Shown: positions 1,052 to 11,610 of the stretch, one piece after another
Numbering within the stretch: the first letter of the stretch is position 1
How the letters are laid out: every line of letters starts with the position of its first letter
Translations under genes and position numbers: made by a program
Origin: Candidatus Omnitrophota bacterium
Lineage (GTDB): Bacteria; Omnitrophota; Gorgyraeia; 2-01-FULL-45-10
DNA: 64,000 nt
Reading direction: 5' to 3'
Assembly (NCBI GenBank): GCA_026387175.1
Contig: JAPLME010000003.1
Span: forward strand, 41,178 to 105,177
The notes under the pieces: model-generated
The model's input: only the letters and a program-made list of their open reading frames with translations
What the model was told of the DNA's origin: nothing
The model's database searches: none

Positions 1052-2299
1052 TTACTGGTTCATCGACATTAAAAATTCGGCATTCGTCTTCGTCTTCGAC
1101 AGCTTCTCTATCAATAACTGCATAGCCTCGTCGCTATTAAGCTCGTTCAGCGCCTTCCTCATGAGCCATATGCGCTTCAGCTCATCGGGATGGAGCAGCA
1201 GCTCTTCCTTCCTGGTGTTCGACCGCTTTATATCGATCGCGGGATATATCCTCTTCTGGAAGAGGTTCCTGTCCATCTGGAGTTCCATATTGCCGGTGCC
1301 CTTGAACTCTTCGAATATGACATCGTCCATCCTGGAGCCGGTATCGATGAGGGCCGTCGCTATTATCGTGAGACTTCCCCCCTCCTCGATATTACGCGCG
1401 GCGCCGAAGAACCTCTTCGGCTTCTGCAGAGCGTTCGAATCGACGCCTCCGGATAGTATCTTGCCCGAATGCGGCACGACCGAATTGTATGCGCGCGCGA
1501 GCCGCGTAATCGAGTCAAGCAGTATCACAACGTCTTTCTTGGACTCGACCAGCCTCTTCGCCTTCTCGAGCACTATCTCCGCCACCTGTATGTGCCTCTC
1601 CGCCGGCTCATCGAACGTGGAGCTTATCACCTCGCCCTTCACCGAGCGCTGCATATCCGTGACCTCTTCCGGGCGCTCGTCTATCAGAAGCACTATCAGC
1701 ACGACTTCGGGATAATTTGTAGTTATGGAATTCGCGAACTTCTGCAGGAGCACCGTCTTGCCGCTGTACGGAGGCGCGACTATCAGGCCCCTCTGCCCCT
1801 TTCCGACCGGCGCGAGGAGATCCATTATCCTCATCGATATCTCCTTGGGACTACTCTCCAGTATGAAGCGCTTATTCGGATAGAGCGGGGTAAGATTATC
1901 GAAGAGCGTCTTGTCCTTGGTCTCATCCGGATTTCCTAAATTAACCGCCTCCACCTTGAGCAGCGCGAAGTATCTCTCGCCCTCCTTCGGCGGGCGGATC
2001 TGGCCGCTGACCGTATCGCCGGTACGCAGGTTAAAACGGCGTATCTGGGACGGGGATACGTATATGTCGTCGGGCCCGGGGAGATAATTATAATCGGGAC
2101 TCCTCATGAATCCAAATCCGTCCGGAAGTATCTCCAGCACGCCCTCGCCGAATATAAGGCCCTCCTTTTCGGTCTTGGCCTGCAGGATCTTGAATATGAG
2201 ATCCTGCTTCTTCAGTCCGCTCATGCCGTTGACATTGAGGTCCTTCGCAAGCTTCGTCAATTCGGCGATGCTCATCGCCTTGAGCTCGGCTATCTCCAT
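1052..2299 (-). CDS. rho: Transcription termination factor Rho
   Basis: Aligns end-to-end with E. coli Rho ([17 protein letters not shown].. ~ MNLTELKNTPVSELITL.., Walker A GKT, RNA-binding and ATPase regions). The longest ORF extends to 2461 as a K/E-rich extension that overlaps coaE by 172 bp. A strong SD (GGGAGG) precedes the ATG at 2299, so the 2299 start is preferred. Confidence 0.9.
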
Positions 2300-2880
2300 A
2301 CGATTTCCTCCCATACTTTTCTTACCTGGCTTCTCGTCAGGCTTCTCGTCCTGTCGTTCCGCACGACGAAGTCCGCCATTTTCAGTTTTCTCTTCATTGA
2401 TATCTGGCTCCTTATCCTCTTTAACACTTCTTCCCTCTTTATGTGAAACTTTTTTAAGCATCTCTCGATCTGCCTTTTTTTAGAACTTTTAACAACGACC
2501 AGTTTATCGACTATATTTAAAAGACGCGCCTCGATCAAAAGCGGCGCATCTATAACCACGACGGCGTTTTTACCGGCCGCCTTAATTTTCGCCTTTATCA
2601 CCCGTATGACTTCGGGGTGCACTATTCTGTTCAATTTCTTGACCGACCGTTTACTGCTGAACGCCAGAGCGGCAAGCTTCTTCCTGTCGATCTCGCGGCC
2701 GGGCGCGAGTATACCGGAGCCGAAAGCGCCGATTATCTTTTTATATGCAGGCTTACCCTTCTTAATAACTCCATGAGCGATCGTATCGGCGTCTATGACG
2801 CTGGCTCCGAGGGACTTAAATATCGAGGCCACAAACGTCTTACCCGTGCCAAAAGATCCCGTCAGCCCTATTACCGTCAC
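2290..2880 (-). CDS. coaE: Dephospho-CoA kinase
   Basis: [16 protein letters not shown]-loop and CoaE-like length and layout. Confidence 0.85.
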
Positions 2881-2881
2881 T

Positions 2882-4270
2882 CTATCGCCTCCGGATCTTA
2901 TTATAGAGCCCTATATAATCCTTCGCCGAGACTTTCCATGAGAAGTCGAGCTCCATGACCTTCTTAACGAACTCTCTCCATGCGCTCCTGTGCTGGTGAA
3001 GGCTAAGCGCCTTCTTTATTGCCGCAAGAAGCGCCTCCGGCTTATATTCTTCGAAGGTGAATCCGGTGCCTTCCTTAGTATCAAGCGCGTATTCGCGTAT
3101 GCTGTCCTTTAGTCCCCCTGTCCGGCGCGCGACGGGGATGGTGCCGTATTTGTAACTTATCATCTGGCTCAAGCCGCACGGCTCATATCTGGACGGGATT
3201 AAAAATATATCACAGGCCGCGTAAATCTTCTCCGCGAGGATAGCGTCAAACTTTAAATTTATCGATGTATTCTTCTGGTGCGCCTTCGCCATCTTTTCCA
3301 GGAGCACGTGGTATTTATGATCTCCTACGCCCAATAAAACGAACTGCACCTTCATACTCAAAATATCATTAATTATCTTCGCGAGTATATCCATGCCCTT
3401 CTGGTCTGCCAGGCGCGATATGATACCTATCATCGGAATATCGCAGTCGACCTTCAATCCCAGATCCTTCTGCAGGGCCTCTTTATTGATATACTTGTCG
3501 TCGAGGTTCTCTATCGAATAATTCTTCACCAGTTCGGTATTGGTAGCCGGATTCCAGATATCGTAATCTATGCCGTTCAGGATACCGTAAAGAACATCCT
3601 TCCTGGTCTGTAGTACCCCTTCTAAGCCGCAGCCGTATTCTTTCGTCAATATCTCCCTGGCATATGTCGGGCTCACGGTGCTTACCGCGTCGGCATAGAC
3701 GATACCGGCCTTCATCAAATTGATCTGTCCGTAAAATTCGAAATAGTGTATGTGAAACAATGCCCAATCCAGCCCCATCTTCGGGAAATCATCTTTATGG
3801 AAGAGGCCCTGATAGGCTATATTATGGATCGTAAATAGCGTGCGGGTATTCGCGAAGAACGGGTCGTATTTATAGATGGTATTGAGGTATACCGGAATAA
3901 GCGCCGTATGCCAGTCATTGCAATGTATTATATCGGGCCTGAAGCCTTCCTTTATGCACCTCTCCAGGACCTGTCTCGAGAAGAACGCGAAGCGGTCGAG
4001 GTTATCGGCGTAATCTCCGAACTTATCGCCGTAGAGCTCTTTTCTGTTGAAATAATCATCGTTCTCGACCAGATAGACCTTCACGTTTTTGCCTATCGTC
4101 GTCTCGCTGTCAGCGGTTTTAACGGAGCGGTATTTCGGCATTATGACGCGCACATCCACGCCGAGGGCTTCGAGCGCTATAGGCAGGCTCCCTGCGACAT
4201 CCGCCAGTCCGCCTGTCTTGGCGAACGGCACAACCTCGCTCGACGCGAATAGTACTTTCAATTTTTCCAA
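2882..4270 (-). CDS. glgA: Glycogen/starch synthase (GT5 family)
   Basis: N-terminal KTGGLADV motif; GT-B fold; 462 aa. Confidence 0.85.
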   Translation of the reverse strand: MEKLKVLFASSEVVPFAKTGGLADVAGSLPIALEALGVDVRVIMPKYRSVKTADSETTIGKNVKVYLVENDDYFNRKELYGDKFGDYADNLDRFAFFSRQVLERCIKEGFRPDIIHCNDWHTALIPVYLNTIYKYDPFFANTRTLFTIHNIAYQGLFHKDDFPKMGLDWALFHIHYFEFYGQINLMKAGIVYADAVSTVSPTYAREILTKEYGCGLEGVLQTRKDVLYGILNGIDYDIWNPATNTELVKNYSIENLDDKYINKEALQKDLGLKVDCDIPMIGIISRLADQKGMDILAKIINDILSMKVQFVLLGVGDHKYHVLLEKMAKAHQKNTSINLKFDAILAEKIYAACDIFLIPSRYEPCGLSQMISYKYGTIPVARRTGGLKDSIREYALDTKEGTGFTFEEYKPEALLAAIKKALSLHQHRSAWREFVKKVMELDFSWKVSAKDYIGLYNKIRRR

Positions 4271-4292
4271 TTCAGATCTCCCCTGGCGGCAA

Positions 4293-6959
4293 CTAAGAGC
4301 CGTATTTCTCCTGCTCCAGCCAATTTTTGCCGACCTCTATATGCGCCTCGACCGGCACTTTCAATTTTATGACATTCTCCATGCCGTCTTTCACGATCCG
4401 GTAGCTCTCTTCCAATTCCTTCTTCGGGACGTCGAAGACGAGCTCATCATGGACCTGCAGCGTCATCTTTGTCCCCAATCCCTTCCTGGCAAGTTTTTCG
4501 TTTATGGCTATCATCGCGACCTTTATCACATCGGCCGCGGATCCCTGGATCGGCGCATTTATGGCGGTCCTCTCCGCGAACTGCCTCATCCTCATATCGG
4601 GGCTGTTTATTTCCGGGATATAACGCCGGCGCCCCAGAATGGTTGTAACGTAACCTTTCTCCCTGGCCTCGACCATCAGCGACTCCATATATTGTTTAAC
4701 GTCGGGATATCTCTCGAAGTAAGCGTCGATAAACTCCTTGGCCTTACTCACGTCTATATTCAAGCTCTGAGATAGCCCGTACGGGCTCATCCCGTAGATT
4801 ATGCCGAAGTTGACGGTCTTGGCCATGCCGCGCATCTCAGCCGTAACATCTTTTTCATCCACATTAAAGACCAGGCTCGCCGTGAACGAATGGATGTCTA
4901 GGCCTTCCCTGAACGCCTTCGTGAGGTGTTTGTCGCCGGACATATGCGCCAGTATCCTGAGTTCGATCTGCGAATAGTCCGCCGAAAGGAGCAGCCTTTC
5001 TTTCCCTGAGGGAATGAAAGCTCTTCGTATCTTTCGCCCCTCCTCGGTCCTTATCGGGATATTCTGCAGATTCGGCCCGCTCGATGAAAGCCTGCCCGTC
5101 GCGGTGACCGCCTGATTAAACGAAGTATGTATCTTGTGCGTCTTCGGATTCAGAAGATCCGGAAGAGAATCCACATATGTGGATTTAAGCTTAGAAAGCT
5201 CCCTGTATTCCAAAAGCGTCTGTGGCAATTTATGTAAGGAGGCGAGTTTCGTAAGGACCTCTTCGTCGGTGGAGTTCCCTGTCTTGGTCCTTCTGATCAC
5301 CGGAAGCTTGAGCTTTTCGAACAGTATCTCCGAAAGCTGTTTCGGCGAGTTGATATTGAACTCCGCGCCCGCCATCTCATATATATTCTTCGTAAGCCTG
5401 GCCAGTTTCTTTTCCATCTCGGATGAGAGGTCGGCAAGATATTCTTTATCTATGGAAACGCCCGTTATCTCCATCGAGGCCAGGACCTCTATAAGTGGCA
5501 TCTCCACCTTGTAGAAGAGGTCGTCCAGGCCCTTATCGGAGATCTCTTTCTCCAATATTTTGGCCAGGCGCAGCGTCACATCGCTGTCTTCACAGCAGTA
5601 CGCGCATACTCTGCCGACATCGACAAGATCCATTGTGATCGCTTTTTTGCCTTTACCTATCAGCTCTTCTATAGGCGTAGTCATCTTATGGTTCAGATAT
5701 TCGATCGAGATCTCTTCCAGATTATGGTTCGGCTTCGAAGGATTAAGGAGGTACGAAGCCACCATGGTATCAAAGAACTCACCGGCAAGTTTTATGCCAT
5801 AGTTAGCCAAAATTATATATTCATATTTGATATTCTGGCCGATCTTCCTGACGGACGCGTCTTCAAAGATGGTTTTGAGCTCACCGAGAACGGTATCGCA
5901 ATCAAAGTACTTATTAACTGGCACATAACAAGCACGCCCCACTTTCCATGAAAAAGAGACTCCGACAAGAGAAGCCAGCATCGGATCTTCGGATGTCGTC
6001 TCAAAATCGAATGCGAATTCATCCAGATCCCTTAGTTCTTCTACGAGTTTTTTGAATTTCTTGTCATCATCGATCAGTTCGTATACGGATTTAAGTGCTT
6101 TCTTGGGAGTGAATTCCTTTATGAGCGACTTAAATTCCAGTTCCTTGAAGAGCTCCAAAAGCTTTTCCTGATCGGGCTCTTTAAGAACAAGTGCTTTAAA
6201 GTCGATATCTATCGGCACATTCGTATCGACTACGGCAAGCTCTCTGCTCAAGACAGCGATCTTCTCATTTTCACGCAGCGTCTTTTTTCTTGCTTCGCCT
6301 TTAACCTTATCGACATTCTTCAAGAGATTATCGAGGCTCCCGAATTCACTGATGAGTTCTATGGCGGTCTTTTCACCGATACCCTGAACACCGGGTATAT
6401 TGTCCGAGGTATCACCCATCAACGCCATTATGTCAGGCATCATATCAGGGGTAACGCCGTACCTCTCCTTTACCTTGCCCGCATCATAGATCAGGCCGTC
6501 TTTATTCGTGTTATAGACTTTTATATGGTTATTGACAAGCTGAAGGGCATCTTTATCGCCGGTGGCGATAAAGGTCTCGATATCGTTCTCTTCTGCCTTC
6601 TTCGCTATAGTTGCCAGGACATCGTCAGCCTCATAGCCTTCCAACTGGTATATAGGTATATTGTAGGCTGAGACCACTTTCTTGATATAAGGCATCTGTC
6701 CCACAAGCTCATCGGGCATGGGTTTACGGTGTATCTTATACTCCTCATATCTCTTATGCCTGAAAGTCGGACCCTTCATATCGAAAGCCACCGCCAGCAT
6801 ATCAGGCGCGTTATCTTTGATTATCTTGCCCAGCATGGTCACGAAGCCATATACGGCATTGGTCGGCTGGCCCCTGGAATTGGAAAGCGACCGTATGGCA
6901 TAAAAAGCCCTATAGCAGAATGAATTTCCATCGATCAGAAAGAGTCTCTTTTTGGACAT
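4293..6959 (-). CDS. polA: DNA polymerase I (5'-3' exonuclease, 3'-5' exonuclease and polymerase domains)
   Basis: 888 aa; 5' nuclease N-terminus; pol A family motifs (RRxAKxxNFGxxYG-like, VHDE). Confidence 0.95.
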   Translation of the reverse strand: MSKKRLFLIDGNSFCYRAFYAIRSLSNSRGQPTNAVYGFVTMLGKIIKDNAPDMLAVAFDMKGPTFRHKRYEEYKIHRKPMPDELVGQMPYIKKVVSAYNIPIYQLEGYEADDVLATIAKKAEENDIETFIATGDKDALQLVNNHIKVYNTNKDGLIYDAGKVKERYGVTPDMMPDIMALMGDTSDNIPGVQGIGEKTAIELISEFGSLDNLLKNVDKVKGEARKKTLRENEKIAVLSRELAVVDTNVPIDIDFKALVLKEPDQEKLLELFKELEFKSLIKEFTPKKALKSVYELIDDDKKFKKLVEELRDLDEFAFDFETTSEDPMLASLVGVSFSWKVGRACYVPVNKYFDCDTVLGELKTIFEDASVRKIGQNIKYEYIILANYGIKLAGEFFDTMVASYLLNPSKPNHNLEEISIEYLNHKMTTPIEELIGKGKKAITMDLVDVGRVCAYCCEDSDVTLRLAKILEKEISDKGLDDLFYKVEMPLIEVLASMEITGVSIDKEYLADLSSEMEKKLARLTKNIYEMAGAEFNINSPKQLSEILFEKLKLPVIRRTKTGNSTDEEVLTKLASLHKLPQTLLEYRELSKLKSTYVDSLPDLLNPKTHKIHTSFNQAVTATGRLSSSGPNLQNIPIRTEEGRKIRRAFIPSGKERLLLSADYSQIELRILAHMSGDKHLTKAFREGLDIHSFTASLVFNVDEKDVTAEMRGMAKTVNFGIIYGMSPYGLSQSLNIDVSKAKEFIDAYFERYPDVKQYMESLMVEAREKGYVTTILGRRRYIPEINSPDMRMRQFAERTAINAPIQGSAADVIKVAMIAINEKLARKGLGTKMTLQVHDELVFDVPKKELEESYRIVKDGMENVIKLKVPVEAHIEVGKNWLEQEKYGS

Positions 6960-7144: not shown

Positions 7145-7348
7145 TCAATGTTTCGCGTCACTGCCGTCAATGCGGCCCGTGTATTCATTCGAGGCATAGC
7201 CCTGCCCATGGCCGCCCCGATACGGACTGCCGTAAACAGCAGGACTGGCTGGATTTTTCAGATGCTGCCTGTTCAGCAATAGTACCGCTATAACAAGAAA
7301 TATTAACGCCAACAATATTTGACTTATAAACACTACCGGCTTCTTCAT
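7145..7348 (-). CDS. Hypothetical small membrane protein (67 aa, one N-terminal TM helix)
   Basis: ORF with a hydrophobic N-terminus and weak SD; no homology recognised. Confidence 0.3.
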   Translation of the reverse strand: MKKPVVFISQILLALIFLVIAVLLLNRQHLKNPASPAVYGSPYRGGHGQGYASNEYTGRIDGSDAKH

Positions 7349-7387
7349 TTATATGCCCCTTTCTTTCCTGAACCCTGACTTATCCAC

Positions 7388-7419
7388 ATTGTAGCTGACG
7401 TTTAAACGTCAGCTACAAT
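7388..7419. repeat. 32-bp perfect palindrome ATTGTAGCTGACGTTTAAACGTCAGCTACAAT overlapping the RT stop codon; probable terminator or protein-binding hairpin
   Basis: Exact reverse-complement symmetry. A related 32-bp palindrome with the same GTTTAAAC core is at 50631-50662. Confidence 0.8.
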
Positions 7420-8500
7420 CATGGTATCCAGTAATATATCCTTGAGCGAACTCTCGAGCTTTTTATGTACCAGATCCTTAAACAGCCTATGCCGCAAGCC
7501 GCCTGTACTGGCGTGCTTGCTGTGCGCCACCCAACAGCGGACGGAATCGCGGATCTCCTTCTCATTCATTTCGCCGTTTTCAAAGAGATGAGTAAATTTC
7601 CCGAGCCTTTTTCTGAAGCGCCTGACATTATCAGATGTAAGGCGCCTATAATCCTTATATATCCTGAACCCTAAGAACTTGATCCCTTTCTCGGTATTGT
7701 AAATCTGGGATTTTCCTTCATGCATCTGAAGCGCTAATCTCTCCTTTAAAAAATCCCTTATCTTACCTTTAACTTCAATAAGCGCTTTCTTATCATTGCC
7801 AAAGATCAAAAAATCATCCATATATCTTATGTAATGGCGAACCCTTAATTGAAACTTGACAAAATAATCCAACTCATTTAAGTAAAGGTTTGCGAGGAAC
7901 TGGCTAGTCAGGTTGCCTATAGGCAAACCTTTTACCATAGCTTCTGTGTTACCCCCCCCCCCCGGCATTTTCCGCTATCTGCCTCGCTGAATCGATTATC
8001 CCATTGATAAGCCGCAGTAGAGGCTCATCCGTAATTCTTTTGGCGAGCATACTTTTAAGTATACCGCGGTCAATCGAAGGGAAAAATTTCTTCACATCCG
8101 CGTGAAGACAGAACCTGTTCGACTTTAAAAACCTCTGGGCTCTGTCCAGGGCCTTATGCGACCCCTTATCCTTCCTGCAGGCGTATGAATCGTAAATAAA
8201 AGTCCTGTCAATGAACGGCTCGATAACGTCATGCACGGCATGATGGACTACCCTGTCCCTGAAAGGCGCGGCGGCGATCTTGCGCTCCTTCGGGTCGTAT
8301 ACGTTAAAGACACGGTACTTCCCGTGCCTGTAAGTCTTATCCGTCAATTCCCTGTGCAGTTTCTCGATCTCCTCTTCAAGAAGGAAGTTAAAATCCGCTA
8401 CCGAGTCCCTGTATCGCCGGGACCTCGCCGCCATATAGGCGGAACGATAGAGATTTTCTTTGGAAACTATCTGGGAATACAGGCCGGTTAATTTCTTCAT
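7402..8500 (-). CDS. DGR reverse transcriptase, split into two ORFs (7949-8500 and 7402-7968) by a 1-nt frameshift in a G12 homopolymer
   Basis: RT motifs FFPSID (motif 2), LPIGNLTSQ (the DGR-specific [I/L]GxxxSQ motif 4) and YMDDFLIFG (motif 5). Deleting one G from the 12-G run (plus-strand C 7952-7963) fuses both ORFs in frame (...ENAGGGGNTEAMVKGLPIGN...). Confidence 0.85.
7952..7963. repeat. C12/G12 homopolymer tract inside the RT coding sequence, at the frameshift site
   Basis: Counted directly: 12 consecutive C on the plus strand. Confidence 0.9.
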
Positions 8501-8532
8501 ATCCCTTTACTTCATTATAGTTATGGAACAAG

Positions 8533-8656
8533 AGAAGTCTTGGCACAGCGAATGCCGTTATTGTTGTTGCGATTAGCATTCGTGTTCGCCGCGTTGTTAC
8601 GGTCCGATACACGAGCGTTGGAACTGTCGTTGTTCCAATTGCCGCCGCGGTAGCCT
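8533..8656 (-). repeat. DGR template repeat (TR), about 124 bp, in the intergenic region just upstream of the RT start
   Basis: About 85% identical to the 3' end of the target gene (9269-9392). Every mismatch is a plus-strand T here, which is an A in coding sense. The coding sense is AAC/AAT-rich (CGC AAC AAC AAT AAC...). Confidence 0.9.
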
Positions 8657-8862
8657 ACAGCGCACAACAGCACTTACGGCGCCGCACCTGGATAATGCGT
8701 ATTAGCGCCTTACAGAAATATATTTAAATATCTCCATAAGGCGCCGTGGTTAATTTTTTCTTTTGTCATAAAAAACAAAGAAGGAAGGCGAGCGCCTGGA
8801 CTTCCCCTTTCCATATTCCGCTCCTGATATCCGTAAACATCAGGATTCTGGGCCTATACAAT

Positions 8863-9201
8863 TCAAAGAGCGGACGATTTTAACCAGCCGCCGACCATCT
8901 TCCCTACCTCTATGGACGATTGGCAGAAAAAATCATAAGCATGTATATTGACGTATTTCATATCTTTGGCTATACGCATCATAAAACGTAAGGCATCTAA
9001 CTTTAAATTTACTTTTATCAATATCTCTCTTTTATTTTTTGAATAAACAGCTTCGATCAACATCTCCAGTATATCCAGAAGGATCGTTTCGATCCTGTCC
9101 GCCAGTAAAAACCTCTGGTCCTTCGGAAAGTTCGCGATCTTGGGCAGCATCCAGAGGATCAACCGGTAATGCTTCTCGACTACGGGAGTTATTTTCTTCA
9201 T
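8863..9201 (-). CDS. avd: Avd-like accessory variability determinant (four-helix-bundle family, related to 23S rRNA intervening-sequence proteins)
   Basis: 112 aa; KHYRLILWMLPKIANFPKDQRFLLADRIETILLDI...EVGKMVGGWLKS resembles bAvd/TIGR02436. Positioned between the target gene and the TR. Confidence 0.7.
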   Translation of the reverse strand: MKKITPVVEKHYRLILWMLPKIANFPKDQRFLLADRIETILLDILEMLIEAVYSKNKREILIKVNLKLDALRFMMRIAKDMKYVNIHAYDFFCQSSIEVGKMVGGWLKSSAL

Positions 9202-9210
9202 TCAAACCTC

Positions 9211-9232
9211 AAAAAGGGATGTGTCCCCTTTT
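9211..9232. repeat. Hairpin AAAAAGGGATGTGTCCCCTTTT with flanking A/T tracts, between the target-gene stop and the avd start; inverted copy at 10888-10910
   Basis: Stem AAAAGGG/CCCTTTT with loop ATGTGTC. About 27 of 31 nt including flanks are reverse-complementary to the element in the target 5' UTR. Confidence 0.6.
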
Positions 9233-9262
9233 CAAAAATTCAAAAACCCAAAGAGCTACAAA

Positions 9263-10870
9263 CTAAGGGGAAGTCCTGGCACAGCGAATGCCGACATAGT
9301 AGTAGCGACCAGCATCCGTGTACGCCGCGTAGATACGGTCCGATACACGAGCGTAGGAACTGCCGGTGCTCCAACCGCCGCCGCGGTAGCCTGAGCCGGT
9401 CGCGTTAGTTCCCGGCCAGTCGGTATTAGTTGTGCTTAAACTGCCGTCGCCGTGACTTCCGATAAATAACCTGCCGGTACTATTGCCTACGGTAACCGGC
9501 CTCTCCCATAAATTCCCTGAAAGCTCCATTATTCCGTAATAGGAACCGCCGGAGGCATATCGGCTTGAGGAACTGGTCGCGGCAAATCCTGAGCGCATAG
9601 GACCTGATACAGTACCGTTGTAGGAGCAATTAGCGTTGTTAGTAGCAGTTTCATTATTCGCGCCGGGATTTGTGGGCCCGGTAGGACCAGCGGTGGGAGC
9701 GGTTGGCCCCCAGGCGTATTCATTGGCTATCGGGTTCATCAGCCCTATAGACGCCTTTTCAAACTCAAGCTCTGTAAATGGCCGGAGTCCCGCCCAATCA
9801 GCATAAGCACATAAGTCGGGCCAGCTTACGTAGTTACAGGCTATCCATTCGCCGTCAGTGGATTCGTTCGGTGTGCCATTATTGTTGTAATCACAGTAAA
9901 ACGTTATTGGGGTAGTGGCTGGAATAGCGGCATCACATCGTATTCCACTACGATAATTAGAAGCGGAAGCGATATTAGCGGCAACACTGGTATTTGCCAT
10001 AACATATATATTGGTTACGGATGTTGTGCCCGAAGCCAGGGTTGTCCCGTTACCAGCCCTTTGGTTCTGCTGGGCACGGTTTAATGTATTCAGAAAATCC
10101 CGGTATTGGCCCTGGTTAACTTCATATTTCATCATGTAGAAACCGTTATAACCTTTGGGGAAAGCGGCAGGTATTGGGCCAGCCTGATCGCCGCCATAAG
10201 TATTTGAATTCGGATAATAGAGATTCCCGGTTGCTGTGCCCACAATAATAGAGTCTTCAGAGGATATCTTGTAAGGGCTGGTGGTGTTGGGATAGCTATA
10301 GAAAGCGTTTGTCTCAGTACCGCCTGAACCTACATAGAACGAACCCGTCGGCACATAGACCATTTCTATCGCCATAACTTTAACCGAGATAGAAGCCGAA
10401 GGAGAGACTCCATCTGTGGCGTAATCCCAGTATACGACTTGGTTGGTCCCGGGCCTGCAGAAAGCGCCTTTTTGATCGGCGCTTATTCCGGTACCGCTTT
10501 GGGCGTTATAGCTACTTACTGTCCCCCCTGAAATTAATGTGGCATGGCTCCAGGCTGTATCGGTACCGGCATTCGCGGCGTCGAAGTACTTCACGAATAC
10601 CCAGGCCCGGTCGAAGAAAGTCTGGCCGTTATTGTCTACGGAAGTGAAAGAATTGTCCCAGACAACGTCGAACTTTACGCCTATCGTACCGTTCGGCTGG
10701 CCTGCGGCTTTATATAAGGAGACATTACTTACGATTATATTATTAGCGTAAGCCTGGGAGGTGAATATTGAATAATGGAAAGCGGAGAGTGCTACTAATA
10801 AGAAGAGGACGCGAAACTTAGAGAGAGAGAGAGAGAGAGAGGAAAGGCTACGGGCAAAACGTTTCAACAT
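9263..10870 (-). CDS. DGR variable target protein: secreted, with an FGE-sulfatase / C-type-lectin-fold C-terminal domain carrying the VR
   Basis: Signal peptide MLKRFARSLSSLSLSLSKFRVLFLLVALSAFHYSIFTSQAYA. The FGE-like region runs YEVNQGQYRDFLN...WPDLCAYADWAGLRPFTELEFEKA...GNLWE. The C-terminus ...GRYYYVGIRCARTSP is encoded by the VR. Confidence 0.85.
   Translation of the reverse strand: MLKRFARSLSSLSLSLSKFRVLFLLVALSAFHYSIFTSQAYANNIIVSNVSLYKAAGQPNGTIGVKFDVVWDNSFTSVDNNGQTFFDRAWVFVKYFDAANAGTDTAWSHATLISGGTVSSYNAQSGTGISADQKGAFCRPGTNQVVYWDYATDGVSPSASISVKVMAIEMVYVPTGSFYVGSGGTETNAFYSYPNTTSPYKISSEDSIIVGTATGNLYYPNSNTYGGDQAGPIPAAFPKGYNGFYMMKYEVNQGQYRDFLNTLNRAQQNQRAGNGTTLASGTTSVTNIYVMANTSVAANIASASNYRSGIRCDAAIPATTPITFYCDYNNNGTPNESTDGEWIACNYVSWPDLCAYADWAGLRPFTELEFEKASIGLMNPIANEYAWGPTAPTAGPTGPTNPGANNETATNNANCSYNGTVSGPMRSGFAATSSSSRYASGGSYYGIMELSGNLWERPVTVGNSTGRLFIGSHGDGSLSTTNTDWPGTNATGSGYRGGGWSTGSSYARVSDRIYAAYTDAGRYYYVGIRCARTSP
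9269..9392 (-). repeat. DGR variable repeat (VR) at the 3' end of the target gene
   Basis: Aligned to TR 8533-8656. About 18 substitutions are all at TR-adenine positions, falling in codon positions 1 and 2 of TR AAC/AAT codons (e.g. TR CGC AAC AAC AAT AAC versus VR CGC TAC TAC TAT GTC). The 3' ends are identical (IMH-like, GGCATTCGCTGTGCCAGGACT versus ...CCAAGACT). Confidence 0.9.
10820..10841. repeat. (AG)11/(TC)11 dinucleotide microsatellite inside the signal-peptide codons (SLSLSLS) of the DGR target gene
   Basis: Counted directly; 22 nt of perfect AG repeats. Confidence 0.9.
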
Positions 10871-10887
10871 ATTTCCTCCTGTTTTTT

Positions 10888-10910
10888 AAAAATGGGACAC
10901 ATCCCTTTTT
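10888..10910. repeat. Inverted copy of the 9211-9232 hairpin, in the 5' UTR of the target gene between the promoter and the SD
   Basis: In minus sense it reads AAAAAGGGATGTGTCCCATTTTT, followed by AAAAAACAGGAGGAAATATG. Confidence 0.6.
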
Positions 10911-10941
10911 CTAAAGAAAACACGAAAATCCAACTTACCTG

Positions 10942-10971
10942 ATTATACTTCTCTCCCCCGTCTCGCGTCAA
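10942..10971 (-). promoter_or_regulatory. Sigma-70-like promoter of the DGR target gene: TTGACG-N18-TATAAT
   Basis: Minus-strand -35 at 10971-10966 and -10 at 10947-10942, about 70 nt upstream of the ATG. Confidence 0.45.
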
Positions 10972-11036
10972 CTGTTTAATAAAATTGGTATGGGGTCAGG
11001 TCTCCACTCTACACTTTTACCAGATTATTAATTTTA

Positions 11037-11318
11037 TCATGCCTGCTTTAATAGCCTGCGTATTTCATCGTGATTACCATATGCGATGAATTCTATAAGG
11101 CCCTTCTGTTTTTTAATCAAAATACGCCTATTTGAGGCGGCATCTATCTCGAAATAATCATCCTTACCCGCCATCTTTCTTACTCGTAAATCGGCAAATA
11201 TCATATCCTTGTTGTAATAATTGAATAGCTCGCGGATCTTTTCATCGATCCTGGATTTTTCAGAATGAGGAAGCTTCTTGTATACACGTTCAAAAGAAGG
11301 CTTGATAATAATCTTCAT
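11037..11318 (-). CDS. Type II toxin of the RelE/ParE superfamily (mRNA interferase-like)
   Basis: 93 aa; N-terminal KKLPHSEKSRIDEKIRELF and C-terminal IAYGNHDEI patterns of RelE/ParE. Lies downstream of a small DNA-binding partner. Confidence 0.75.
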   Translation of the reverse strand: MKIIIKPSFERVYKKLPHSEKSRIDEKIRELFNYYNKDMIFADLRVRKMAGKDDYFEIDAASNRRILIKKQKGLIEFIAYGNHDEIRRLLKQA

Positions 11319-11322
11319 GCAT

Positions 11323-11610
11323 TTATGATGCCTTATGAAGATGTCTTATAGCCGCATCAGCGCTGTCAAACGCCTTTCCTTTCGCGGAGGCAAGCTTTTC
11401 GATTTTCTTCCATTCCTGCGGTGTATAAGGGTTATCCTCTTTGATTGTTGTGGTCACTCTTAATAACATAAAACCACCTGAAGCCGCTTTAAAGGCTATT
11501 TCGGATCCTTCTTTAAGGCCGAGCAAAGCCCTCACGGCTCTTGGAATGGTAGTCTGACCTTTTGAGGTAATATGCGACATGTAATATCTGCCCTTATTAA
11601 GTGTTTTCAT
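11323..11610 (-). CDS. AbrB/MazE/SpoVT-family antitoxin (swapped-hairpin DNA-binding domain)
   Basis: SKGQTTIPRAVRALLGLKEGSEIAF is an AbrB-type motif. The gene is 4 bp upstream of the toxin gene. Confidence 0.7.
   Translation of the reverse strand: MKTLNKGRYYMSHITSKGQTTIPRAVRALLGLKEGSEIAFKAASGGFMLLRVTTTIKEDNPYTPQEWKKIEKLASAKGKAFDSADAAIRHLHKAS

Follow-up and report, generated by a model that had tools for sequence, protein, structure and literature searches.

The target gene and its cassette

The window analysed here, a whole stretch of 64,000 nucleotides (nt) on contig JAPLME010000003.1 of a Candidatus Omnitrophota bacterium, contains a diversity-generating retroelement (DGR) whose target gene carries a pure CT dinucleotide repeat, (CT)11, within its signal-peptide codons. 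All parts of the cassette lie on the minus strand, in the order target gene with a C-terminal variable repeat (VR), accessory gene bAvd, template repeat (TR) and reverse transcriptase (RT). The target gene is an open reading frame (ORF) of 535 amino acids (aa) at 9263-10870, with a C-terminal FGE-sulfatase/C-type-lectin-like domain that matches Pfam PF03781 (FGE-sulfatase) over residues 242-532 (E=1.2e-15). At its 3' end lies the VR (9266-9392), and alignment to it places the TR at 8530-8656; the two differ at 20 of the 127 aligned nt, and 18 of these differences fall on TR adenines. The bAvd gene, encoding 112 aa, occupies 8863-9201 (PF22296, E=1.8e-19). The RT gene, at 7402-8500, is 76% identical to intact DGR RTs and is split by a run of twelve G residues (G12) into two ORFs (7949-8500 and 7402-7968), both of which match RVT_1. 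With its adenine-biased VR/TR differences, its associated RT and accessory gene, and its FGE-sulfatase fold, the 535-aa gene is a genuine DGR target. The encoded protein is 100% identical to MCX5677658.1 (P0001 among the homologues) from a Candidatus Omnitrophota metagenome-assembled genome (MAG), and has 2733 homologues at E<=1e-10, with PF03781 present in almost all of the best 120.

The first 42 codons of the target gene (10745-10870, minus strand) encode a basic n-region that includes a serine-leucine (SL) tract, an h-region VLFLLVALSAFHYSIF, and a c-region ending in SQAYA↓NN, so that the N-terminus as a whole reads MLKRFARSLSSLSLSLSKFR-VLFLLVALSAFHYSIF-TSQAYA↓NN. Its parts are MLKRFARSL-S-SLSLSLS-KFR, a hydrophobic core (VLFLLVALSAF) and a cleavage-type motif, AYA↓NN. 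Judged by inspection, this is a probable Sec-type signal peptide, and its features (basic n-region, 16-residue hydrophobic core, AYA↓NN), together with the DGR-diversified ligand-binding C-terminus, are those of an exported or surface product. The A-x-A-N-N junction is kept in homologues whose N-termini differ elsewhere, and homologues without the tract have ordinary signal peptides of 22-30 aa on the same junction, which indicates that the SL stretch is an insertion into the n-region that is dispensable for export. Upstream on the same strand are a Shine-Dalgarno (SD) sequence, AGGAGG (10875-10880), 4 nt 5' of the ATG at 10870, and a sigma-70-like promoter, TTGACG-18-TATAAT (10942-10971), which with 11/12 matches is the top site within 7300-11400.

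A non-random repeat kept at the DNA level

The tract occupies 10820-10841, where the plus strand reads AGAGAGAGAGAGAGAGAGAGAG, or (AG)11, and the minus (coding) strand reads (CT)11. Tandem Repeats Finder reports an uninterrupted repeat of period 2 with 11.0 copies and 100% matches. It covers nt 30-51 of the 1608-nt coding sequence, which begins ATG TTG AAA CGT TTT GCC CGT AGC CTT TC-(CT)11-AAG TTT CGC, and it encodes SSLSLSLS in codons 10-17. The perfect 22-nt AG/TC repeat that the initial annotation placed in the signal-peptide codons is thus present, the encoded peptide is as described, and calling the unit TC or CT is a difference of phase only.

Such a tract is far beyond what base composition would produce. 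Under a first-order composition model, (CT)11 is expected about 5e-8 times and (AG)11 about 1e-9 times per 64 kb; the longest dinucleotide run in 200 simulated windows had 7 units, and the second-longest real run of the window has 5. Across 37 long ORFs of the window, TCT makes up 11% of serine codons and CTC 21% of leucine codons, and the probability that the four serine and three leucine codons of the tract would all be TCT and CTC is about 1.5e-6. The uniform use of the rare serine codon TCT indicates that the repeat is kept at the DNA level, with no peptide requirement. The (CT)11 tract is therefore a non-random feature of the DNA rather than of the peptide, and, as an uninterrupted non-triplet repeat above chance length in the 5' part of a coding sequence, it is of the kind and in the position expected of a contingency locus.

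Frame consequences of changes in repeat number

The tract was replaced in silico by tracts of other lengths. With n = 8, 11, 14 or 17 units the full-length protein is encoded; with 10, 13 or 16 units a stop codon falls right behind the tract (TAA, from CT+AAG) and the product has 16-20 aa; with 9, 12 or 15 units it is a peptide of 23-27 aa. The earlier claim that a change of one unit shifts the reading frame is thereby confirmed, the product being cut to 16-25 aa at n = 9, 10, 12 and 13. The check for alternative in-frame starts that had been proposed alongside it gave a negative answer, as no ATG, GTG or TTG in the frame of the mature protein occurs between the tract and residue ~92, where the nearest plausible start downstream lies, without a signal peptide. 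At n = 10, a TTG 13 nt past the ATG enters the frame, at a distance of 17 nt from the SD. Since the alternative products are short peptides and no usable start rescues them, a slip of one unit amounts to a clean null or, at most, to very weak expression. The allele assembled in the window is in the ON frame.

These properties lead us to a reading that we consider probable, in which (CT)11 is a contingency locus for a secreted or surface-located DGR variable protein, operating by slipped-strand mispairing and currently ON. During replication, the 22-bp repeat would misalign by whole CT units. In alleles of 8, 11, 14 or 17 units the frame opened by the ATG at 10870 would continue through the signal-peptide core into the mature protein (ON), alleles of 9, 12 or 15 units would yield only the 23-27 aa peptide and have no usable downstream start (OFF), and alleles of 10, 13 or 16 units would meet the stop behind the tract, with the poorly placed TTG alone in frame (OFF or very low). 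Translation of the exported variable protein would thereby become stochastically and reversibly switchable. Because the tract lies upstream of everything functional in the protein, each slip would be a clean and reversible null. We infer further that the rate of slippage in this organism is high, that there are OFF cells or subpopulations, and that selection maintains the switch, for instance because it hides a receptor or adhesin from phage or from prey defences, or because it saves cost.

The same tract in related loci

Four of the best 120 homologues (P0001, P0003, P0010 and P0117) have an (SL)n N-terminus, and related loci, drawn from these homologues and their cluster mates and designated here by L numbers, carry the tract at the DNA level. 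In L001 (Logan SRR13007708), whose target is 76% identical to the window protein, it is (CT)13 at 447-472; in L002 (ENA ERZ27248937; target 57% identical) it is (CT)16 at 1111-1142; and in L009 (ENA ERZ27248911; target 49% identical) it is (CT)11 at 6018-6039. A sibling of L002, L008 (JGI Ga0268276), has (CT)16 at 7355-7386 and was the sole locus found when JGI metagenomes were searched with a degenerate DNA pattern for the signal-peptide core. A sibling of L009, L010 (ENA ERZ27248961), has (CT)11, also at 6018-6039, and L012 (NCBI GCA_054635775.1), which falls in the same 90% cluster as L009 and encodes the homologue P0122, has (CT)14 at 4743-4770. All of these tracts are uninterrupted, and each follows a short basic N-terminus and precedes the hydrophobic core. 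The four other homologue lineages share one layout of promoter, SD, ATG, basic stretch, (CT)n, K(F/L)R or V, and hydrophobic core, with a TTGAYN-18-TATAAT promoter and an AGGAGG-type SD upstream. In 324,665 nt of DNA, comprising the window and 28 related loci, the only dinucleotide runs of at least 6 units are the seven CT tracts, all of them at the 5' end of DGR target genes.

The recovery of a CT tract at the same gene position in independent NCBI, ENA, JGI and Logan assemblies, with identical lengths from independent samples, makes it scarcely credible that the tract is an artefact of assembly or sequencing, even if simple repeats are error-prone in short-read assemblies and the G12 of the RT gene could be off by one base.

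Distant relatives of the target (32-42% identical), found by scanning genome contigs with the target protein in a collection that holds no close relatives, have no CT tracts. A profile of the three SL-bearing N-termini returned one irrelevant fragment from the protein database, the candidate list being swamped by low-complexity SL words. Viral contigs yielded no relatives of the target, and the arrangement SD-ATG-(up to 36 nt)-(CT)>=10 occurred five times in 2.9 million viral contigs, in no case at anything resembling a secreted-protein gene. A viral contig, L033 (IMG/VR UViG_3300015607_001342), has at 4151-4197 an SD, an ATG and (CT)10, and behind these runs an open frame of 210 aa in a different phase from that of the ATG; this may be a phage gene in its OFF phase, or a coincidence.

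Another Omnitrophota DGR, L025, has a perfect heptanucleotide array, (CTATTCA)x4.4, in its signal-peptide codons (…FTIHYSLFTT…), and 36-nt inverted copies (AATAGTG arrays) lie 244 nt upstream and just downstream of the gene; the array and related copies are at 4314-4344, 4034-4069, 5861-5896 and 1980-2026. A frameshifting repeat of another kind, in an inverton-like geometry, thus stands here where other targets have (CT)n.

A further observation concerns the 5' ends of the target genes as modules. L008 (7453-9064) and L011 (6103-7714) encode targets that are 97.8% identical from the signal-peptidase site onward, with unrelated 5' ends and in unrelated genomic surroundings: L008 has the promoter, SD, (CT)16 and hydrophobic core, and L011 an ordinary signal peptide without a repeat, linked to bAvd and RT. 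A shared gene body behind unrelated 5' ends indicates that the repeat-bearing 5' module behaves as an exchangeable cassette. Mirror repeats of the type (CT)n.(AG)n can form triplexes, as proposed for the CTCTT repeats of Neisseria opa, and the tract might accordingly be imagined as a structural or recombinational element of the DNA, forming H-DNA or serving as a hotspot for exchange of 5' modules between target paralogues. The junction of the L008 promoter-SD-(CT)16-h-region module with a gene body so close to that of L011 is what such an element could produce; however, the breakpoint between the two is not at the tract but ~65 nt further downstream, at the signal-peptidase site, and H-DNA or recombination would in any case be compatible with slippage. 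We regard this explanation as very unlikely.

A role in the messenger is also to be considered, in which the CU tract serves as an anti-Shine-Dalgarno partner, a pyrimidine-tract binding site or a translation enhancer, its length tuning translation. In minimum-free-energy folds of the 5' region, the CCUCU edge of the tract does form a stem with the SD, both in L001 and L002 and in the window, where it has 8 bp (GGAGGAAA with UUUCCUCU). These folds are, however, no stabler than those of shuffled sequences (z = +0.1 to +1.1), the pairing is missing from L009, and a purine-rich SD is expected to pair with any nearby pyrimidine run. A regulatory partner, moreover, has no need of a perfect dinucleotide repeat of variable length, and the comparison with Rfam gave no known RNA family in the window. 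An RNA-level function of this kind thus seems improbable to us.

Variation in tract length

Across the homologous loci the tract has 11, 13, 14 or 16 units, and two lengths are found among close relatives, with 11 units in L009 and 14 in L012 at ~94% identity of the flanking DNA. Comparison with homologous targets had been proposed in the initial annotation, with an invariant repeat number as the outcome that would speak against phase variation; the repeat number was found to vary.

Several observations nevertheless weigh against a switch. None of the seven tract copies, from five lineages, is OFF, all being in frame with their ATG. Most of the tract loci came to notice because a called protein contained an in-frame (SL)n, which biases the set toward ON, and sampling was blind to frame for the window, L008 and L012 only. 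Two pairs of near-identical loci agree in length: L002 and L008, 99% identical over 1.9 kb, both have 16 units, and L009 and L010, 99.8% identical over 10.5 kb, both have 11. The lone polymorphism among close relatives, 11 versus 14 units, is an in-frame step. L009 and L010, which come from different samples, differ at 20 positions in 10.5 kb, and 19 of these lie in the VR (7534-7616), which indicates that their DGR is currently active; as the VR has changed and the tract has not, the consensus tract must change more slowly than DGR mutagenesis acts. The annotations P0002 and P0122, which are short at the N-terminus, were considered as OFF alleles and dropped; in L012, the locus of P0122, the (CT)14 preserves the frame, so that the downstream start of P0122 is an annotation choice only.

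The same observations favour a rival account, in which the tract is a tolerated hypermutable insert in the n-region, with no adaptive switching. The n-region of signal peptides takes nearly any short polar insert; a CT run that arose there by slippage would persist, since length changes that preserve the frame do no harm, and frameshifted variants would be purged. The seven in-frame copies, the in-frame step from 11 to 14 and the unchanged lengths in the two near-identical pairs are all as this account predicts, and the ordinary signal peptides of tract-less homologues fit it as well. What it does not predict is the purity of the tracts. Repeats whose frameshifts are only harmful should gather stabilising interruptions, yet 11-16 pure units persist in five lineages whose proteins are 24-51% diverged, which argues against mere tolerance. 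That such tracts occur at no other gene position in 325 kb of related DNA argues likewise, and the presence of a second extreme repeat, in the RT gene of the same cassettes, also counts against it. On the whole, we consider simple tolerance a rather unlikely explanation.

Returning to the contingency locus, the suggestion in the initial annotation that the variable protein is phase-variable stands with respect to anatomy, frame logic and length differences among relatives; with respect to ON/OFF switching as such, the uniformly in-frame copies and the equal lengths in the two close pairs tell the other way. On balance, phase variation of the target is a well-supported inference.

A second simple repeat in the reverse transcriptase gene

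The G12 homopolymer that splits the RT gene (7952-7963; G12 on the minus, coding strand and C12 on the plus strand) lies in the loop between IIDSARQ and KGLPIGNLTSQ and gives the cassette a second extreme simple repeat. Apart from the CT tract, 2.9 kb away, no simple repeat of the window is as extreme, every other G/C run having 6 residues at most. This is in keeping with the earlier observation of an RT homopolymer in the same cassette. Replacing it by G11 or G14 gives a continuous RT of 365 or 366 aa, respectively, and the window G12 could be either a true OFF state or a one-base miscount of the homopolymer. In L013, whose RT is the closest homologue at 76% identity, the corresponding loop contains an in-frame G9 (1134-1142), followed by the same TAAC.

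Long G runs are also found in a 3' extension of the RT gene past the conserved RT end, as G10 in L009 and L010 and as G13 in L022-L024. Among homologues the sequence after this 3' run is read in three frames, as '...GGGIMTNLLWD...', as '...GGGDNDKSFVGSP...' or as an immediate stop, which implies that the G runs of RT genes change length over evolutionary time; length change of simple repeats in this DGR lineage also speaks for the contingency reading of the CT tract. A 9-nt 5' flank, GAAAATGCC-Gn, is shared by the RT-loop run of the window (7960-7972, minus strand) and the G10 of L009/L010 (9687-9705), which occupy different places in the gene, and the runs in L022-L024 take the form GAAAAGGCT-G13 (L022 2816-2828, L023 2523-2535 and L024 1764-1776). 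Since the 3' extension is read in all three frames, it may be conserved as nucleic acid and not for its coding. No GAAAATGCC-G9 element was found in viral contigs. In L009, a palindrome with a 13-bp stem (GGGGACGGTTCTC…GAGAACCGTCCCC) lies immediately upstream of the 3' G run; the same palindrome is intergenic around DGR components at 5 sites in L009/L010, 4 in L012 and 8-10 each in L025-L028, and is absent from the window.

The CT tract and a long G run occur together in the window (CT11, G12) and in L009/L010 (CT11, G10), that is, in the CT cassettes with a readable RT, and cassettes without a CT tract and without a long G run are found in L011 and L014-L021. With n = 4, this co-occurrence is suggestive only. 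Together with the length and frame variation of both kinds of tract among relatives, it supports a tentative model, in our view possible but on the doubtful side, in which DGRs of this Omnitrophota clade are gated at two levels, the (CT)n tract switching display of the protein and the poly-G of the RT switching the mutagenesis engine. If this were so, the lineage could conceal or display a variable receptor and, by a separate switch, halt or resume diversification of the receptor sequence, a form of bet-hedging added on top of targeted hypermutation, and the state of the window would be 'protein ON, diversification OFF'.

Flanking features and target copy number

Two 28-nt inverted-repeat arms, 93% complementary and with the core GGGACACATCCC, enclose the SD and the entire target ORF, the promoter remaining outside. 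The upstream arm (10883-10910) is in the 5' untranslated region, in the interval between promoter and SD, and the downstream arm (9211-9238) between the target stop codon and bAvd; each is a small hairpin with A/T runs. The pair could be a 5'/3' RNA processing stem, a terminator pair or the borders of an invertible segment. As a specific form of the last, an inverton in which the gene flips between the 28-nt arms was considered; there is no recombinase among the neighbouring genes, the repeat is absent from the homologous loci, and the opposite orientation of the target segment was not seen.

Just 5' of the target promoter, at the end of an upstream small ORF, lies a 29-nt block (…GTAGAGTGGAGACCTGACCC…; 10993-11021) that is 96.6% identical to L001 235-263, where it has the same position; it may serve in regulation or mark the boundary of the cassette. 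Directly upstream of the promoter is a small pair resembling a toxin-antitoxin system (11037-11318 and 11323-11610, minus strand), in which the toxin has a ParE-like match below the curated cutoff and the antitoxin a MazE/PrlF-type match. On this side of the cassette the neighbours are the MazE/ParE-like pair, a BNR-repeat protein, a response regulator and a pseudouridine synthase; on the other side they are polA, glycogen synthase, coaE and rho.

A second target paralogue, P0002 (MCX5677845.1), is 87% identical to the window target and is encoded on another contig (61.6 kb), apparently of the same MAG, to judge by neighbouring accessions. Its VR fits the TR of the window, and as annotated its N-terminus is shorter by 33 aa. 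Among contigs encoding the RT P0128, L014, L015 and L017 have two tandem copies of a 520-aa target (1882-3444 and 3557-5119) with identical 5' ends, and L016 has one (3557-5119). One versus two target copies beside an identical RT shows that the copy number of DGR targets varies between samples.

Significance and comparison with known systems

Contingency loci based on simple repeats are known almost entirely from host-adapted pathogens, and DGRs have been treated as stand-alone diversifiers. If the tract is a switch, phase variation extends to environmental nanobacteria, here in a phylum that is uncultured and possibly predatory or epibiotic, and cells control stochastically if they produce a hypervariable binding protein in the first place. 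The combination of CT tract and RT poly-G would further offer a model for why many metagenomic DGRs look 'inactive', and for how useful variants become fixed.

As a retroelement, the cassette resembles both that of Bordetella phage BPP-1 (mtd/avd/TR/brt) and the cellular DGRs with C-type-lectin/FGE-fold targets in its standard organisation and in its adenine-specific VR/TR differences. It also shares an N-terminal signal peptide with cellular DGRs, in whose targets a large survey notes that a signal peptide or transmembrane segment is usual (PMC8144416). In the literature searched we found no described DGR with a frameshifting simple repeat in the 5' codons of its target or with a long homopolymer in its RT, and no paper linking DGRs with simple-repeat phase variation or reporting this arrangement in Omnitrophota.

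For the G12 of the RT, the nearest likeness is with the poly-G tracts of Campylobacter jejuni and Neisseria, which are likewise long coding G/C homopolymers in which a change of 1 nt toggles the frame, although the gene affected there is one for a surface structure and here a reverse transcriptase. For the CT tract, one parallel is Neisseria opa, in which CTCTT pentanucleotide repeats lie in the leader-peptide codons and slippage switches translation of a surface adhesin. Both systems have a pyrimidine-rich repeat in signal-peptide codons and a hydrophobic or Ser/Leu-rich leader; the unit in opa has 5 nt rather than 2, and opa is a multigene family of a pathogen, with no link to a retroelement.

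The closest parallels are the outer-membrane protein genes of the Hop family of Helicobacter pylori, where hopZ, sabA, sabB and babB, among others, have CT repeats in the signal-peptide coding region. In oipA (hopH) of this species, CT repeats in that region switch the gene on and off by slipped-strand mispairing, with tracts of 5-11 CT units reported (PMC10564699), and enrichment of simple repeats toward the N-terminus is a recognised signature of phase variation (PMC3315296). The likeness to the Omnitrophota targets extends to the CT unit, to a tract in the 5' coding sequence upstream of the hydrophobic and cleavage parts, to overlapping tract lengths, to the frameshift and early stop that follow a change in unit number, and to an exported or surface product. 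The differences are that H. pylori is a host-restricted pathogen and the Omnitrophota bacterium an uncultured environmental one, that the protein families are unrelated, that the switched gene in Omnitrophota is itself a DGR target, and that ON/OFF alleles and switching are documented in H. pylori, where in Omnitrophota they are predicted. Most likely the tract is a contingency switch like those of oipA and hopZ in H. pylori, in a phylum new to the class and in the target gene of a DGR.

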